From a virus (lineage: Duplodnaviria; Caudoviricetes): DNA of 64,000 nucleotides. The notes beneath the pieces are model-generated. The model was not told where the DNA came from. It was given only the letters and a program-made list of their open reading frames with translations, and did not search any database. Where the stretch lies: the IMG/VR virus record IMGVR_UViG_3300042940_001591, one strand, 5' to 3'. Each line of letters starts with the position of its first letter. Within the stretch, counting starts at the first letter, position 1. Positions 1,621 to 59,993 of the stretch are shown one piece after another. The position numbers and the translations under genes were made by a program.

Positions 1621-1701
1621 TAATTTCTCATTATTATATATTATTTTATGGTGTTATCTAAAAAATAAGAAAAAAAACTTACAAAACCAAAAATAATTTT
1701 A

Positions 1702-1709
1702 TATATTTG
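1702..1709 (+). promoter_or_regulatory. Bacteroidetes -7 promoter element (TAnnTTTG) for bS21
   Basis: TATATTTG ending 19 nt before the ATG at 1728. Confidence 0.7.
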
Positions 1710-1727
1710 TAGTATACTTATTATATT

Positions 1728-1919
1728 ATGATTATTATCGATTTAACAAAAGAAAAAAGTATTGAAAGTGCACTTAGAACCTATAAACAAAAGGTTCAAA
1801 AAACTAAGCAAATTCAAAAATTGAGGGAAAGACAACAATTTGAAAAACCTTCAGTTACTAGAAGAAAAGAAGTTTTAAAAGCTGTGTATGTTCAACAAAT
1901 AAAAAATGGTCTTAGTTAA
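1728..1919 (+). CDS. rpsU: 30S ribosomal protein bS21
   Basis: 63-aa basic protein with IESALRTYK, LRERQQFEKPSVTRR and KAVY; matches the Bacteroidetes S21 pattern. Confidence 0.92.
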   Translation: MIIIDLTKEKSIESALRTYKQKVQKTKQIQKLRERQQFEKPSVTRRKEVLKAVYVQQIKNGLS

Positions 1920-19439: not shown

Positions 19440-19516
19440 ATGGTTATTCTTTTATTATAAATATAAAAAAAGGAGGTTATTACACCTCCTTTTAAATAAT
19501 TCTTAATGTAATTAAA

Positions 19517-20239
19517 CTATTTTGTGAATATTCCTTTTTTAATCATTCTATCAAGGATGTTAGCACATGCAATATCTAAAGCCTTTTTAGTTGCTATGGA
19601 AATTGTTGATTGATTAAATTTTATTGGGTCTACAGTTGCATCAGATAAAAGGGTTAACTCTCTTTTTGTGGTTGCCTCACCTAAACCCGATCCACCAAAT
19701 ACAACACCTGTTTCAGCATCTGTAAATCTAACCTGAAGACCTATACGAGTCACCATATTGTCTTGTATACCATTTTTAAGGTTGATGGTTTCATCTTCCG
19801 ACACCGAGTAATCATAACACTCAATAGTGACAAAATACTTTGCCAAATTTATTTTACCACGACCATCTAATTTATTCTCGGAAATACCAGATTGGGATGC
19901 TTGGAATTGCTTTACCATACGATTCTTAATTTCTGTTTTATCCTCAGTAAATTTGAATCTGTTTAAGTTTTCAAGATATTCCATTGAAATATTAGCAACC
20001 CCCAAACCAACACGTTTTTCTTTTAGTTCAGGATACATTTCATACATCTCATCAGAAATTCCTGCCTTTAATATTTGAATTGGAATTTGTGGACCGTCGT
20101 AATCCATATAATCACTAATATCTCTTTTCTTTTCGAAGTCCGCCTTGTAGTCTTCTGTTTTAGTTTTACCTATTGTTTGTCCGTTAACAACAACAACGCT
20201 TAGTAAAAAAACGCTTAATAATGTTAATAATTTTTTCAT
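19517..20239 (-). CDS. CsgG/HfaB-like outer-membrane assembly protein
   Basis: Signal peptide; LENLNRFKFTE; YFVTIECYDY; IGLQVRFTDAETGVVFGGSGLGEA resembles the CsgG fold. Confidence 0.65.
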   Translation of the reverse strand: MKKLLTLLSVFLLSVVVVNGQTIGKTKTEDYKADFEKKRDISDYMDYDGPQIPIQILKAGISDEMYEMYPELKEKRVGLGVANISMEYLENLNRFKFTEDKTEIKNRMVKQFQASQSGISENKLDGRGKINLAKYFVTIECYDYSVSEDETINLKNGIQDNMVTRIGLQVRFTDAETGVVFGGSGLGEATTKRELTLLSDATVDPIKFNQSTISIATKKALDIACANILDRMIKKGIFTK

Positions 20240-20417: not shown

Positions 20418-20477
20418 TTTTAATTAATTTTTTAAATAAATTTTTATTAAAAAGGAGGGTTTTATCCCTCCTTAATA

Positions 20478-33610: not shown

Positions 33611-34360
33611 ATGAGAATAGTTTGTATATCCGACACACATGCCTTACATAGAGGTATGACCCACGAATTACCACAAGGTGATGTGTTAATACATGCGGGT
33701 GATTTATCAAATAGAGGTGGAGAAAGAGATGTGACAGAATTTATTCATTGGTTTCAAAACATAGAAGGGTTTGACTCTAAAATTTTTATTTCGGGTAATC
33801 ACGATTTCTGTTTTGAGCGGGTTAATCAACCGCACCATAAAGGCGACTACGATTGGTTAAACAATCTAATGACTCCTGAAAATCTATCTCAATCCAATGT
33901 GACTTATTTGGAAGATAATTTTATGACTATTGAGTCACCTGAATTTTCAAGACCAATTAAAATCTACGGAAGTCCTTGGCAACCAAATTTTTATGATTGG
34001 GCTTTTAACTTACCAAGATTTGGGGTTGAGTTACAAGAAAAGTGGAATATGATTTCAGAAGATACTGATGTATTAATAACACATGGACCACCAAATGGAT
34101 ACGGAGATTTAGTTAATAATTGGCGACAACCAAATACAAACGTAGGTTGTGAGTTGTTACGAAATAGAATAGAAGAAATAAATCCATTAGTAAGTGTATT
34201 TGGTCATATTCACGAAGGTTATGGTGTTGAGCTCGGTAATAAAACATTATTCGTAAATGCATCAACTTGTAACTCAAAATACGAACCAATAAATAAACCA
34301 ATAATCATAGACTTACAAGAAGTTTATGGTGAAATAATTGCAACTCATGTCGAAATATAA
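33611..34360 (+). CDS. Calcineurin-like metallophosphoesterase
   Basis: CISDTH, HAGD, GNHD, LITHGPP, FGHIHE. Confidence 0.92.
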   Translation: MRIVCISDTHALHRGMTHELPQGDVLIHAGDLSNRGGERDVTEFIHWFQNIEGFDSKIFISGNHDFCFERVNQPHHKGDYDWLNNLMTPENLSQSNVTYLEDNFMTIESPEFSRPIKIYGSPWQPNFYDWAFNLPRFGVELQEKWNMISEDTDVLITHGPPNGYGDLVNNWRQPNTNVGCELLRNRIEEINPLVSVFGHIHEGYGVELGNKTLFVNASTCNSKYEPINKPIIIDLQEVYGEIIATHVEI

Positions 34361-35030
34361 TGGACCAATTAGTGTTGTCATTTCAACACGAAAAATAGAT
34401 GATACGTATTTAAAACACGTTGAGAAAATGTTTTCACACCCTAAAACTCAAATATTAATTTATGAGAATGATGGTGTGGATTCATTACCCAAAATTTATA
34501 ATTTAGGATTACAAGATTCCGAAAATGATATTGTGGTGTTTATGCATGACGATCTTATTTTGGAAACCCCTAATATCACACCAAAAGTTATTAGATTATT
34601 TGAGGAGAATCCTGAATATGGCATAATAGGATTGGCCGGTACTAATAATTTAATGAGTGGAATGTGGTGGCAGGATAAAGAATCTATGTATGGTGTTGTT
34701 GGTCATGAACATCAAGGTAAAAGACATGTAAATCACTACTCAAAACAATCATTTGGTGACAAACCAAAAGAAGTGGTTATTGTTGATGGGTTATTTATTA
34801 TGGTTCATAAAGATAGAATTAAACATAAGTTTAATGAAGAATTTACAGGGTTCCATTTCTATGATTTACCGTTTTGTGTTGACAACCATTTAGATGGGAT
34901 TAAAGTTGGGGTTACCACTAAAATAATGGTAACACATAAATCCATTGGTATGGTAAATAAACAATGGGAAAAAAATAAGTTGTTTTTTGAGGCATTATAC
35001 GAAAAACACTTCCCTTTAAGGGTTAATTGA
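34338..35030 (+). CDS. GT2-like glycosyltransferase
   Basis: IYNLGL...VFMHDDL...VIVDGLFI...FHFYDL. Confidence 0.8.
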   Translation: MQLMSKYNGPISVVISTRKIDDTYLKHVEKMFSHPKTQILIYENDGVDSLPKIYNLGLQDSENDIVVFMHDDLILETPNITPKVIRLFEENPEYGIIGLAGTNNLMSGMWWQDKESMYGVVGHEHQGKRHVNHYSKQSFGDKPKEVVIVDGLFIMVHKDRIKHKFNEEFTGFHFYDLPFCVDNHLDGIKVGVTTKIMVTHKSIGMVNKQWEKNKLFFEALYEKHFPLRVN

Positions 35031-35072
35031 TTTTAGCACAATAACGGATATTTATATATAAAACAAACAATT

Positions 35073-35372
35073 ATGATGACAGTACTTTTAATTTTATTGG
35101 CTTTGGTTGTGGCTGGAGCGGTAGTATTTTTCCTAATGAAATCAGGTAAAATCGAAGACAAAGATGGTAATAACATTCCAGATGCGGTTGAAGAAAAATT
35201 GGCGGAAGTTAAAGAAGTTGCTAAAGTGGTTAAGGAAAGAGTAAAAAGAGTAGTTGAAGAAACTAAGGATGTTGCTGAAGCCGCTAAAAAAGTTGTTAAG
35301 CAATCTAAAGATGTTGTAAACGCAACTAAAGGTGGTTCTCGCAAAGGAAGAAAACCAGCCGCTAAGAAGTAA
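35073..35372 (+). CDS. Small N-anchored membrane protein with a helical, basic tail
   Basis: N-terminal TM, EDKDGNNIPD, Lys/Val/Glu heptads; TATTTATA at 35049. Confidence 0.7.
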   Translation: MMTVLLILLALVVAGAVVFFLMKSGKIEDKDGNNIPDAVEEKLAEVKEVAKVVKERVKRVVEETKDVAEAAKKVVKQSKDVVNATKGGSRKGRKPAAKK

Positions 35373-35452
35373 ATTATCACACATAATTAAATTTAAGGGT
35401 TAAAATTTGTTTTTTAACCCTTTCTCATCTACATTTGTATTCTATTTATTAC

Positions 35453-35849
35453 GGGGGTGCTTGGCATTGATTTCAGGTATCAGGGGTAAGTGGCACGTAG
35501 TCAGACTTCATCTATGACTTAAATCTATGGTGGAAAATTCTAGACGGCAACGTTTATAACAACATGGAAATTGCAGGTTTACTTGCAACTTCTAACGTAG
35601 CAGTAGCCTAAGGCGAAACTACAATCGGGTCGACTGGCATGTAACCTAGGAACAGAAGCCTTCAAGGTGTAACACCACCCGAAGAGTGTTGGAGCAAATC
35701 TGACGGCTCTTGAAAATCCGGTTAGGAACAGTATTGATGGTTTCCTGTAATTAACCTTCTATTTGTCTGTTATGAACTAATAGAATAAACGTGTAGTCAT
35801 TTATTGTTGAACAGGAAAGACACGGGTTCGAGTCCCGTCACCTCCACCA
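35453..35849 (+). ncRNA. ssrA: tmRNA
   Basis: GGGGGTG/CACCTCC-ACCA acceptor with G3-U70; GGTTCGAGTCCC T-arm; internal tag ORF 35546-35611; TACATTTG promoter at 35430. Confidence 0.93.
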
Positions 35850-35850
35850 T

Positions 35851-35879
35851 AAACCCATCTTCGGATGGGTTTTTTGTTT
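35851..35879 (+). terminator. tmRNA terminator, possibly bidirectional
   Basis: AAACCCATC-TTCG-GATGGGTTT followed by a T-run. Confidence 0.8.
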
Positions 35880-35990
35880 GGTGTCTCTATTAACGAGCAA
35901 AAGGTCCGAAGACCCTTTGTCGAGATTTGAAACACCTCCTTTTCGTTTATAAGTATTATCGTTTAATGGCGACCAAACCAATTAAACTCT
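35880..35990 (-). ncRNA. Putative small structured RNA (element B)
   Basis: Minus-strand TATTTATA at 36001-35994; 5' hairpin; GGUGUUUC/GAGACACC stem enclosing a cUUCGg hairpin; no ORF. Confidence 0.55.
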
Positions 35991-36006
35991 ACATATAAAT
36001 ATCTTA

Positions 36007-36651
36007 TTATTCATTAATGTTTGAAATAATTGATGATTTTGTTTTATATGCAACATTACAAACAGCATTTGCTAACATTTCACCAAATTGACTTGATTTT
36101 ATGTATTCAAATACCGTATTTCTTAAGAAATTCGCAGCCATTGAATCTTCTTCAGTACTTGATGAAATAATATATACCACTAATGATTCTGATAACGCAT
36201 CAGCAACAGTACTACCATGATATGAACAACTTTGTTTATCTCTAAAGACAGCAATTAAATCACTTAATGTCATTTCACTCATTGCAGTTGCCATTGCACT
36301 CACTAACGGACCTTTAAACCCTATTAGGTTTAATAATGTTGTTATTGCATATTCTTTAAATTGTGAAATGGCCCCACCACCTACTTTATCTAAAATACCA
36401 CTTCTTGTAGATGCATCTTGTGGATTTTGTTTGTTTGGTGTGAATAGTTTTTTTAACCAATCAAATTGTTCATTTACCACACCTTCTATTTGTTCATTGT
36501 CATATCCCTCATCTATCAATTTACCCAAATATTGTATGGTTAAACCAAATTTATCCTCATCATTTTCATTTAGAAAAATCCTCTCAAAGGATTCGTTTAT
36601 AGAATGCTTCTTTGAGAGGGTTTCACTTACTATTTTTTTAATATCTTTCAT
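36007..36651 (-). CDS. Hypothetical late protein
   Basis: 214-aa ORF. Confidence 0.7.
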   Translation of the reverse strand: MKDIKKIVSETLSKKHSINESFERIFLNENDEDKFGLTIQYLGKLIDEGYDNEQIEGVVNEQFDWLKKLFTPNKQNPQDASTRSGILDKVGGGAISQFKEYAITTLLNLIGFKGPLVSAMATAMSEMTLSDLIAVFRDKQSCSYHGSTVADALSESLVVYIISSSTEEDSMAANFLRNTVFEYIKSSQFGEMLANAVCNVAYKTKSSIISNINE

Positions 36652-36652
36652 A

Positions 36653-38494
36653 TTATTCTTCTCCTTGTAATTTCCACTTATATTTCATTGTTACATCTTC
36701 ATCGTCTCTATCTCCAGTTTCTCTTTGTTTCTTTTGAATATAACCTTGGTCTTTCAAATATTTATCTAAGATGTAATAGTCGTTACCTTCTAATTCAGGA
36801 CCTTTCCATTTAACAATAACACCATTACGTTTTTTAACTAAATTTTTACTAGCCAATAATTCTTGTAATCTGTTTCTATCGTATACAGGTTCGGCAGGTA
36901 CTGCTGGAGGTGTTATAGGTGCTGTTGTTGTGTTACCAGTTGTAGAACCTGTAGTTGTACCCGTTACTGAAGCGGTAGAACCTGTTGTAGAACCCGTGGT
37001 TGTACCCGTTGTAGATCCTGTTACTGGATTACAAGCTGAAATAATCTTATCATATGTTTCTTTTGTAATACCACCAGATAAATTATATTGTAAATCTTCT
37101 AAACCTTTTTTAGTCTTAGGTCCAAAATAACCTTTTTGTGGTGTGATACCTAAACATTTTTGTATTTCTGCAATTTTTGGTGAAATACATCCAAATTCAA
37201 ACGGAAAATCTTTTGTTGAACAATCTTGATAGTTTGGATTTGAACTTCCAGAACCTCCACTTCCAGAACCTCCGCCACCATCAACAGGTGCGGTTTCACC
37301 ATCCCAAGTAATATTAATGTTACCAATACCTGTATTTGGATTACCATCTCCTTGTTCTGCAATTACTGTTTGTGTACCTTTACAAGACCATCTACCTCTT
37401 TTTGATTGATCCTTCATGAATACTCTACCGTTATTGTAAAACCATAAACCACCCTTTCCATCATATTCAGAATTACCTGTTTTTGTAACTTGTACTACTG
37501 GATCTCCGCCCGTTGTATTTCTAATTGTTGTTCCGGTATCATCAATAACATCATCTAGACATTTACCAAATAATTGATCTCCAGGTTTTGTTGTTCCACC
37601 TTTAAAAAATTTCCAAAGATACCAACCACCTACACCAGCTAAACCTAACATAATCCAATATTTTGGACTTAATCTACCGGCAATTGCTTTAAACTTTTGC
37701 CATTTAGAAGGTTTCATTGTTTCAACAATGGCTTTGGATTCTTGAGCAACAACTTTAGCTTCTGGCGCAATTTCTTTAATTGCTTGTACTTCAGCATGTG
37801 TTACTGCGGCTCCTGCTTGTGTTCCTGCCGAACCTCCCTGAGTCATGGTAATGTTAACCTCATTTTTAATTGCGGCTTCTGCTTGTTGAGGTGTTTTAAC
37901 AGTTTCTAATTGTTTAATCTTCGCTTCTAAATCTGCAATTTTCTTTGTTTGATTAGCCGCTTTTTTTCCTTCTTTACTAACAACACCCGTTTCTAATTTT
38001 CTAGCCATCTCTTTAGATTCGGTTTGTGCTCTTAAGACTATATCATCAATTTCTTTAGTTGTTATATTTTTTCCTGATGCTTTTAATTCATTACTTTTTA
38101 ATGACATTTCTTTCATTGCCTTTAATTTAGAGGCTTCCTTTGCTGCAGGTCCCAATGTATTTGTTGTTGATATTCTTACTCCATTTTTCAAATCCAACTT
38201 TATTGCATCTTCAAGTTCTTTAGTTAATTGAGTAAGGTCTTTTGTTAATGCTGTTGCGATAACATTATCAGACAATTTAAATTCTTTACCCATTGCGGAA
38301 ATTATAGCAGTTTCCTTGGCTCCCGTAGCGGCATTTTTAAATCTATTTGCAATTTGTTGTCTTTGTTCTTCAACCTCAGTTGACTCATCTTCACTTACCA
38401 ACTTTAAAGCATTTAAATTTTCATTTAATGTTTTTTCATTATTATATGACATCATTAATTTAATTCTGTCAATTGTGTTTGTATTATTTTTCAT
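36653..38494 (-). CDS. Large TM protein with a peptidoglycan-binding-like motif
   Basis: Coiled N-terminus, TM (YWIMLGLAGVGGWYLW), EIQKCLG...GYFGPKT, G/T-rich linkers. Confidence 0.65.
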   Translation of the reverse strand: MKNNTNTIDRIKLMMSYNNEKTLNENLNALKLVSEDESTEVEEQRQQIANRFKNAATGAKETAIISAMGKEFKLSDNVIATALTKDLTQLTKELEDAIKLDLKNGVRISTTNTLGPAAKEASKLKAMKEMSLKSNELKASGKNITTKEIDDIVLRAQTESKEMARKLETGVVSKEGKKAANQTKKIADLEAKIKQLETVKTPQQAEAAIKNEVNITMTQGGSAGTQAGAAVTHAEVQAIKEIAPEAKVVAQESKAIVETMKPSKWQKFKAIAGRLSPKYWIMLGLAGVGGWYLWKFFKGGTTKPGDQLFGKCLDDVIDDTGTTIRNTTGGDPVVQVTKTGNSEYDGKGGLWFYNNGRVFMKDQSKRGRWSCKGTQTVIAEQGDGNPNTGIGNINITWDGETAPVDGGGGSGSGGSGSSNPNYQDCSTKDFPFEFGCISPKIAEIQKCLGITPQKGYFGPKTKKGLEDLQYNLSGGITKETYDKIISACNPVTGSTTGTTTGSTTGSTASVTGTTTGSTTGNTTTAPITPPAVPAEPVYDRNRLQELLASKNLVKKRNGVIVKWKGPELEGNDYYILDKYLKDQGYIQKKQRETGDRDDEDVTMKYKWKLQGEE

Positions 38495-39700: not shown

Positions 39701-39738
39701 TATTTTTTTTTTATTTCTATATAAATATCCGTAATTTC

Positions 39739-55363: not shown

Positions 55364-55414
55364 ATGTCTTGATTTTAACACTAAAAAAAGATATTTATAG
55401 GATATTTATATACT

Positions 55415-57218: not shown

Positions 57219-58061
57219 TTATGATAATAATGAATAATATTCTTTAAAGTGTTTAATTCTATCCGCTAATCCAATCGTACCTCCATTTACTCTTTTTGTA
57301 ATTGAAGTAACAACAGCATCAGTTGCTCCACCGTCAGCCATTTTATGTAGACCGTTCTTTGAGAAGAACCAAGCTGCTGATAATAATGCATAATCTGATG
57401 CAACCTTGTCAGGATTTGATAGGATATCTTCATTAATTGATTTACCAAACGCAGTGTAGTTTTCCTTACCAGTTAATTGGATATATCCACGTCCACAGAA
57501 TTTTGCACCTTCTCCAGATGATTCAGGACCATTACCCATTCTATTTCCGTAAACTTTATTTGCAATTTTAGTAGGTTGTCTTTCGTATGGTTTTGCTGCT
57601 GCTTCATTTGGGAAATACTTTTTAAACGTACCCACTAATCCCTTAGCTGAATAATTTAAATTTTCTTTTGTAGCTCTAAACCCTCCTGATTCATGACCAC
57701 ATTGTGCCAAGAAGTGTGCTAATCTTAACGGTGTATTAATTTGAAATTTAGCAGCCGTGTCGGGAATTTGACGAATAACCGCATCAGGAATATGACCCTT
57801 TAGTTTTTCTAATTTTAACCCACCAACTGAAGCAACAGGTGCTGGTTCAGTTATAATTGTTGGAGCACTTACAACACCTTCAGAGAATAACTTACCCCAA
57901 GTGCCATCACCAACAATACCATCTGCAGTTAAACCATTAGCAGATTGCCACGTTTTAACCGCCGCTTCTGTTTTTGGTCCAAATTTACCTATTGGGTCAA
58001 CACCCAATTTAACTTGGAGTTTTTTTACATCTTCTCCTTCAGATCCTAGTTTTAGTAACAT
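57219..58061 (-). CDS. Endolysin: PG-binding domain + GH19
   Basis: VKKLQ...FGPKTEAAVKTWQ...LTADGIVG; RLAHFLAQCGHESGGF, ENLNYS, GRGYIQLTG, VNGGTIGLADR. Confidence 0.92.
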   Translation of the reverse strand: MLLKLGSEGEDVKKLQVKLGVDPIGKFGPKTEAAVKTWQSANGLTADGIVGDGTWGKLFSEGVVSAPTIITEPAPVASVGGLKLEKLKGHIPDAVIRQIPDTAAKFQINTPLRLAHFLAQCGHESGGFRATKENLNYSAKGLVGTFKKYFPNEAAAKPYERQPTKIANKVYGNRMGNGPESSGEGAKFCGRGYIQLTGKENYTAFGKSINEDILSNPDKVASDYALLSAAWFFSKNGLHKMADGGATDAVVTSITKRVNGGTIGLADRIKHFKEYYSLLS

Positions 58062-58169
58062 AATATGTTTTGTGTTTAAAGTCTTTATTTAATTATAAAT
58101 ATCTAGACAATGGACATAAAAAATTTAGTAGAATCAGAAATATTCTATATTTTTGTGTAAATTTGATTT

Positions 58170-59962: not shown

Positions 59963-59993
59963 TTCTATTTTTTAAATAAATATCTAATTATCG

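Follow-up and report, generated by a model that had tools for sequence, protein, structure and literature searches.

In Flavobacterium johnsoniae, the 3' tail of 16S rRNA is buried by bS21, bS18 and bS6, and only rpsU has a strong extended Shine-Dalgarno (SD) sequence. Ribosomes lacking bS21 translate rpsU faster, and 30S subunits lacking it preferentially bind the rpsU SD; the 13-bp helix between the SD and the anti-SD (ASD) excludes bound bS21, single mismatches abolish initiation, and SD-less (phage) messages are translated worse by bS21-less ribosomes (PMC9976891, PMC13000457, PMC13000453). It has been speculated that bS21-encoding phages carry products aiding bS21 exchange, with rpsU autoregulation serving as a counter-defence (McNutt 2023, PMC9976891). 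The phage group considered here and its bS21, which retains the aromatic residue reported to hold that tail, were described by Chen 2022 (PMC9723584), a text with no mention of tmRNA, sRNA, non-coding RNA or GOLLD.

Here we describe a small RNA gene from a phage of this group, carried in a 64-kb stretch of DNA (64,000 nucleotides, analysed as a whole and called the window below). We searched the literature for such an RNA and found no description, and the family is, as far as we found, unpublished. Like the bS21 encoded by phages (Mizuno 2019, PMC6375957; Chen 2022, PMC9723584), it belongs to a lineage of giant freshwater myoviruses of Bacteroidota and bears on one region of the ribosome shared with that protein, namely the platform and the 16S tail; unlike the subject of that work, which deals with the protein only, the RNA is a separate gene lying 35-40 kb away. 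In common with the rpsU extended SD of Flavobacteriales and other Bacteroidia (Jha 2021, PMC7797042; PMC9976891; PMC13000457, PMC13000453), it has the same sequence AAAGGAGGUGU, 12-15 nt of complementarity to the 16S tail, predicted energies in the same range, the same variant-tail alleles and a codon at similar spacing. Unlike the rpsU SD, the tract stands before neither rpsU nor any other ORF, AUC replaces AUG, a terminator follows 12 nt past the AUC, and the RNA is encoded by phages with its own promoter and 5' stem-loop and is absent, by pattern, from bacterial and archaeal genomes. 6S RNA imitates an open promoter, occupying RNA polymerase; as with this and other decoy RNAs, the small RNA would imitate the nucleic-acid ligand of a core machine, here the mRNA docking site, for the 30S subunit. 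It differs from 6S RNA in that its proposed target is an rRNA tail reached by base pairing, and it shows no likeness to 6S RNA in sequence or fold and no Rfam match. In Haloferax volcanii, a tRNA-derived fragment made by the host binds the small subunit and competes with mRNA, globally and under stress. The phage RNA is likewise a short RNA that may bind the small subunit and compete with mRNA; in contrast to the fragment, it has a dedicated phage gene and would be aimed at a normally hidden tail that one host gene uses. The stable RNAs C and D of phage T4 are encoded beside tRNA genes, and neither is known to carry an SD-like tract; the small RNA resembles them as a small stable-RNA-type gene of a T4-like phage situated near the tRNA genes.

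The first-pass annotation of the window had pointed to AACACCTCCTTT on the plus strand at 35931-35942 (RNA-sense, minus-strand form AAAGGAGGUGUU), with no start codon behind it, in a phage that carries a bS21 gene. Both observations hold, as the window contains a bS21 gene and none of the 94 distinct homologous elements described below has ATG, GTG or TTG 4-16 nt after GGRGG. The tract sits in a 157-nt gap between a tmRNA gene on one side and the stop of a 214-aa ORF on the other; the window also carries ten tRNA genes and a GOLLD RNA. The genes to which we refer are as follows.

1728-1919, plus strand: phage bS21 gene, 34 kb from the small RNA, with no SD
35453-35849, plus strand: phage tmRNA gene (ARAGORN and Rfam, 78 bits), followed by a terminator at 35851-35872 and convergent on the small RNA
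36007-36651, minus strand: 214-aa ORF, for which no family match was found

The sole other match to the tract in the window with at most one mismatch is TACACCTCCTTT at 19481-19492. It forms the 5' arm of a plain terminator hairpin, AAAAGGAGGUGUAAUAACCUCCUUUU with a U run, behind the minus-strand gene at 19517-20239, so that the annotators were right to place a second copy near 19482-19492 inside an ordinary terminator stem. They had cautioned on this ground that the tract might be a chance occurrence. The 12-mer count by itself is nonsignificant (0.52 matches expected, and two reached in 10 of 100 shuffles) and could be chance; the tract is nevertheless not a chance match, because it is conserved in 94 distinct homologous elements. 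The terminator hairpins at 19456-19495 and 20436-20475 have arms reading AAGGAGG and CCTCCTT, which indicates that SD-like and anti-SD-like strings also arise as plain GC-rich stems in this AT-rich genome. A blastn search of GenBank phages with 35400-36700 returned no match, and the region is absent from the nearest virus record examined (G001).

The tract is the core of a self-contained non-coding RNA gene on the minus strand, running from about 36003 to 35895. The RNA itself is probably about 92-96 nt long, from about 35988 to about 35895, as judged from its sequence signals. Its parts, in the direction of transcription, are listed below.

35995-36003, minus strand: promoter box GATATTTAT, beginning 3 nt past the stop of the 214-aa ORF and nearly invariant in the family
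between the promoter box and the 5' stem-loop, minus strand: spacer of 5-7 nt, then AGAG
about 35987-35990, minus strand: putative transcription start (AGAG)
35961-35987, minus strand: 5' stem-loop with arms 35978-35987 and 35961-35969 and a one-base bulge
35970-35977, minus strand: 8-nt loop UUUGGUCG of the 5' stem-loop, with an invariant UGGU core (few members differ in A4)
35956-35960, minus strand: GAUAA on the 3' side of the stem-loop, of which AUAA is invariant in A4
35949-35955, minus strand: variable spacer (the 5-12 nt after AUAA vary freely)
35929-35948, minus strand: conserved single-stranded block AAACGAAAAGGAGGUGUUUC, including the tract at 35931-35942
35917-35926, minus strand: AUCUCGACAA box, conserved in every member and invariant in A2 and A4
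35898-35919, minus strand: covarying terminator hairpin CAAAGGGUC-UUCG-GACCUUUUG, then CUCGUU, with a U-rich tail
about 35893-35900, minus strand: putative 3' end of the RNA

The AUC of the AUCUCGACAA box lies 8 nt past GGAGG in the window, that is, at the position of a start codon, and an AUC is found 6-10 nt (mode 8) past GGRGG in all 94 elements. One member, L008, has a 1-nt insertion in this box and reads AUCUACGACAA. A weak 5-bp hairpin between AUCUC and GAGGU is predicted, with no covariation.

The family is a real structured RNA. When 31 distinct viral copies were aligned by model fitting, pairing held in 98.7% of the helix cells and double changes were seen at 14 of the 19 pairs, values reached by none of 500 shuffles, and slid controls were 40-63% paired; such an alignment leans towards structure, and an independent MAFFT/RNAalifold run yielded the same two helices. 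The 5' stem-loop has two-sided changes at nine of its ten pairs, with 98% of cells paired, and the terminator hairpin at five of nine, with 99.6% of cells paired. In L012, L055 and L122 the stems are quite different, and the terminator loops across the family read, in the RNA sense, UUCG, CUAAA, GUAA or GUGA. The folding z-score of the window RNA is -2.5. Searched with 35877-36004, Rfam 15 gave no match at gathering thresholds; relaxing the cut-off to E = 10 added nothing but terminator-like pieces of small RNAs from unrelated families, none above 20 bits. The RNA must be read from the minus strand, because only there do the G-U pairs, the U-rich tail and loops of the UUCG and GNRA types make sense; about one-sixth of the helix cells are G-U pairs, and their plus-strand equivalents are A-C mismatches. 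On the same features we reject an alternative offered in the first-pass annotation, by which the opposite strand would mimic the anti-SD.

Several further structural and coding readings of the element were considered. For a possible pseudoknot between GUCG of the loop and a downstream CGAC, both sides are nearly invariant and the changes in L035 and L012 are uncompensated. Anti-terminator pairing of the tract with the 3' arm of the terminator was rejected, as it is lost in variants with other hairpins, judged by eye. A conserved peptide was rejected on the ground that indels shift the frames. The complementarity of the loop UUUGGUCG and the AUCUCGACAA box to 16S rRNA was no better than that of shuffled motifs.

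The window contains 12 copies of the box GATATTTAT where 2.8 would be expected, a fourfold enrichment that none of 100 shuffles reached. Eleven of the copies stand 5-76 nt ahead of a co-oriented ATG ORF, one of them encoding an endolysin (57219-58061), and the twelfth belongs to the small-RNA element and has no ORF behind it. Examples are as follows.

39721-39729, minus strand: GATATTTAT site
55390-55409, plus strand: GATATTTAT site
58095-58103, minus strand: GATATTTAT site
59976-59984, minus strand: GATATTTAT site

Given this enrichment and the co-oriented ORFs, the box has the behaviour of a promoter of the phage, which may be of the late class. A plus-strand late promoter of the T4 type, TATAAATA, was rejected, since at 11 of the 12 sites the box is oriented like the ORF downstream of it on the same strand. 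Spacings as short as 5 nt between box and ORF suggest that some messages are leaderless or nearly so. At 35033-35380, two ORFs overlap on opposite strands, one of 115 aa (minus, GTG start) and one of 99 aa (plus, ATG at 35073); the latter is favoured as the real gene, having a GATATTTAT box 17 nt upstream.

The element thus has the marks of an independent sRNA gene, with its own promoter box, a covarying terminator and flanks that differ between loci, and its transcription is inferred from these. We compared 34300-37300 with four lake or river metatranscriptome contig sets, whose contigs carry neither strand nor ends and whose standard libraries lose RNAs of about 95 nt. Over the small-RNA stretch, two runs gave no cover, as read from strandless contigs of libraries that lose RNAs of this size; the other two gave only a contig of 5.4 kb at a mean depth of 93 and a single record of 151 nt at depth 2, both equally strandless. 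In the same four sets, the tmRNA had depths of hundreds to thousands, and the neighbouring genes of 2-8.

In pattern searches, dozens of viral contigs, many being 200-335 kb long, proved to contain the element, and the total came to 94 distinct versions (156 instances) from viral and metagenome contigs of lake, river, estuary and some marine data. It is present in one copy per locus and per complete phage genome (model R1). A pattern search of 185,579 bacterial and archaeal species, each represented by a single genome, did not find it. In IMG/VR, the gap stays conserved beside relatives of the 214-aa gene that share as little as 50% protein identity, and also in loci without the tmRNA. The element is nonetheless not tied to that gene: it stands behind unrelated sequence in L016, L017, L019, L025, L055, L122 and others, and it is intact, promoter box included, where the upstream gene differs.

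Conservation across related phages, one of the checks that the first-pass annotation had proposed, turned out to be complete for the tract. AAAGGRGGU is present in all 94 distinct elements, and the spacer just upstream varies freely. Circularity was avoided by searching with patterns that omit the tract. In the viral data, the first such pattern gave 132 hits, of which 88 were chance hits that the downstream box filtered out; tract-free searching there added six members, all with ACC[T/C]CCTTT. In the metagenome data, a tract-free search gave 110 hits in 42 distinct versions, 41 with AAAGGRGGU and the 42nd a chance hit; the 109 metagenome members recovered by tract-free patterns all have it. 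The tract is therefore invariant in all true members, including those found without it.

The tract matches the end of the host 16S rRNA. The Bacteroidetes 16S tail given in the first-pass annotation is correct: of 121 tallied genome matches to GYTGGAACACCTCCTTT, in 120 stretches, 119 follow 16S helix-45 sequence, nearly all in Bacteroidota records. Flavobacterium tails read GGAACACCUCCUUUCU, and the proposed alignment to the host 16S 3' end shows the tract to be complementary over 13-15 pairs. The duplex between the tract and GGAACACCUCCUUUCU has a predicted energy of -23.0 kcal/mol with 14 consecutive pairs, the best of 128,000 positions on both strands of the window, and the next-best site in the window reaches -18.9 kcal/mol. 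Across 31 variants of the element, the predicted values range from -14.2 to -23.2 kcal/mol. By the same method, two host rpsU leaders, that of a Flavobacterium genome (GAAAGGAGGUGU) and that of a Lacihabitans genome (GAAGGAGGUGU), gave -21.5 and -18.5 kcal/mol, respectively. An extended SD of rpsU should have 9-13 or more consecutive pairs with the tail at less than -13 kcal/mol, and the window tract pairs as well as this; it should also stand 7-10 nt upstream of the start of rpsU or another ORF, and the tract has no such position, as none of the 94 elements has ATG, GTG or TTG 4-16 nt after GGRGG. The 65 larger ORFs of the phage have no SD (best -8.3, median -2.0 kcal/mol) and A-rich leaders, as in Bacteroidia.

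The tract varies at its ends in a manner that resembles host variation. Its main alleles are GGAGGUGUU and GGRGGUAUU, with GGAGGUG in 60 distinct elements and GGRGGUA in 34. Among 401 sampled Bacteroidota genomes, 26 (about 6%) have the tail GGAAUACCUCC instead of GGAACACCUCC. In five of five genomes with the GGAAUACCUCC tail, rpsU reads GGAGGUAU (host genomes L464-L473 and L474-L493 compared with L262-L266), which indicates that the host rpsU site follows its own 16S tail. This covariation between the rpsU SD and the 16S tail is a further natural case, outside the core CCUCC. The 16S genes with the variant tail are only about 82-83% identical to the sampled ACACC-type genes, so these genomes represent another deep branch. 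On its 5' side, the tract reads AAAAGG or GAAAGG, matching host tails that end in CCUUUU or CCUUUC, and both tail types exist. The close relatives L040 and L019 differ in allele, and switches therefore occur within the family. Matching alleles of this kind would result if pairing with the host tail were under selection; the match is suggestive only, because transitions are common, G-to-A being the commonest substitution.

The phage bS21 is 76% identical by tblastn to PF01165-positive ORFs of related giant phages. Its gene has a host-type promoter, TATATTTG, which fits TAnnTTTG, about 20 nt ahead of the ATG (region 1690-1730, plus strand), and its initiation region forms a predicted duplex of only -0.9 kcal/mol with the 16S tail. 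In contrast to host rpsU, it should be read by ordinary ribosomes replete with bS21. All small-RNA-positive records of at least 70% completeness have the bS21 gene, and all bS21-positive records of at least 90% completeness have one small RNA, the negatives being fragments. The two genes lie 35-40 kb apart in fixed order, and their co-occurrence may for this reason reflect merely shared ancestry, as parts of the core genome of one phage lineage.

The small RNA is placed in an island of translation-related RNA genes, directly adjoining the tmRNA gene tail to tail in most loci and lying a few kb from the tRNA array. In L021/L007 (IMGVR_UViG_3300017917_003277), it stands behind the 214-aa gene with no tmRNA within the 12.7 kb examined. 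The tag encoded by the phage tmRNA ends in ATSNVAVA. Pairing of the tract with the tmRNA acceptor end seemed possible, as the two are complementary in the window and in L008, and fails across 13 phages: the acceptor strand varies (CACCUCC, CAUCUCC, CGUCUCC, AUACUCC), and the tract shows no matching changes. Because the tract is constant while the acceptor is variable, its partner would be a constant host sequence and not the tmRNA.

Taken together, we favour the reading, at a probability of about 0.5, that the small RNA imitates the extended SD of rpsU with no ORF behind it and base-pairs with the tail of 16S rRNA. Between its 5' stem-loop and its terminator, the RNA would display single-stranded AAAAGGAGGUGUU(U/C), which equals the rpsU extended SD, and in the infected cell this stretch would pair over 13-15 bases with the host 16S 3' tail. 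From the work on F. johnsoniae, the tail would be free only on 30S subunits lacking bS21, and the long helix would be incompatible with bound bS21. Because only AUC stands at start-codon spacing, the complex of RNA and 30S subunit could not start translation and would thus compete with rpsU mRNA for bS21-free subunits, so that the self-correcting supply of host bS21 would be shut off. The RNA may also help host bS21 to leave ribosomes, while phage bS21 would meanwhile be made from its SD-less message. Of the interpretation in the first-pass annotation, the minus-strand SD decoy is in keeping with the invariant tract, its 13-15 16S pairs and its co-occurrence with bS21, and the anti-SD mimic on the opposite strand falls. 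More tentatively, it is possible that the RNA remodels ribosomes, evicting host bS21 from mature ribosomes through its 13-15-bp helix with the 16S tail and blocking the rpsU feedback so that phage bS21 takes over late, with a sequence that tracks the host tail variant.

Some observations speak against a decoy. Phage bS21 keeps the tail-holding aromatic residue, so the long helix should exclude phage bS21 too; since SD-less messages are also translated more poorly without bS21, a decoy would need dosing or timing. The GAGGU part of the tract may be held in the weak hairpin with AUCUC. In addition, the conserved loop UUUGGUCG and the AUCUCGACAA box have no role in the decoy model.

These two invariant blocks bear on one of the alternatives, in which the RNA binds or sponges a protein, for example free bS21 or bS1, through UUUGGUCG, AUCUCGACAA and GGAGG, its SD likeness being secondary. 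Invariant single-stranded blocks are typical of protein sites, and these two are unexplained by 16S pairing; we nevertheless regard this as unlikely, since it leaves unexplained both the exact 13-15-nt complement of the 16S tail and the alleles shared with host tails and rpsU, and no candidate protein can be linked because the neighbouring genes differ between loci. A less improbable, if still doubtful, alternative is an ordinary base-pairing sRNA whose purine-rich seed AAAGGAGGU would pair with CU-rich sites in host or phage mRNAs and alter their translation or stability. The layout of promoter, 5' hairpin, conserved single-stranded stretch and terminator is typical of trans-acting sRNAs. No mRNA target stands out in the 64-kb window, however, where the best sites are the antisense of the element itself and two terminator hairpins, and the seed complements the 16S tail perfectly over 13-15 nt, is identical to the SD of host rpsU and has alleles that follow the 16S-tail variants.

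The position of the element invites two other explanations, both tied to its neighbours. It could be a cis element, either the 3' UTR and terminator of the 214-aa gene or a barrier to read-through towards the convergent tmRNA gene, considering that in the window it lies directly 3' of the 214-aa ORF, facing the tmRNA terminator, and that it adjoins the tmRNA in most loci. This is very unlikely, given that elsewhere the upstream gene differs while the element and its promoter box are intact, that L021 has no tmRNA, and that a terminator needs far less than a covarying 5' hairpin and about 70 nt of single-stranded sequence kept invariant. It is harder still to believe in a tiny non-stop message, in which ribosomes drawn in by the strong SD would start at AUC, reach the end of the RNA with no stop codon on the way and become substrates of the phage tmRNA. 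Such a message would suit the AUC that all 94 elements have at the distance of a start codon, and the tmRNA as the usual neighbour. Yet AUC is a very poor start codon, differences in hairpin length shift the frame, the changes compensate RNA structure and not a peptide, and the element persists where no tmRNA is near.

For the exchange of host bS21 for the phage protein, the mimic of the rpsU extended SD proposed here provides a concrete and synthesisable candidate for the helper predicted earlier (PMC9976891). Should binding of the kind proposed occur, the RNA would, to the extent of our searches, be the first from a phage to target the anti-Shine-Dalgarno tail. If the reading is true, it would also be, again as far as we found, the first natural ORF-less copy of a ribosome-binding site with a decoy function, and a second user would join the one gene to which this ribosomal feature has been assigned. 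The bS21, tmRNA, tRNA and GOLLD genes of these widespread lake phages would then be linked in one programme of translation takeover.
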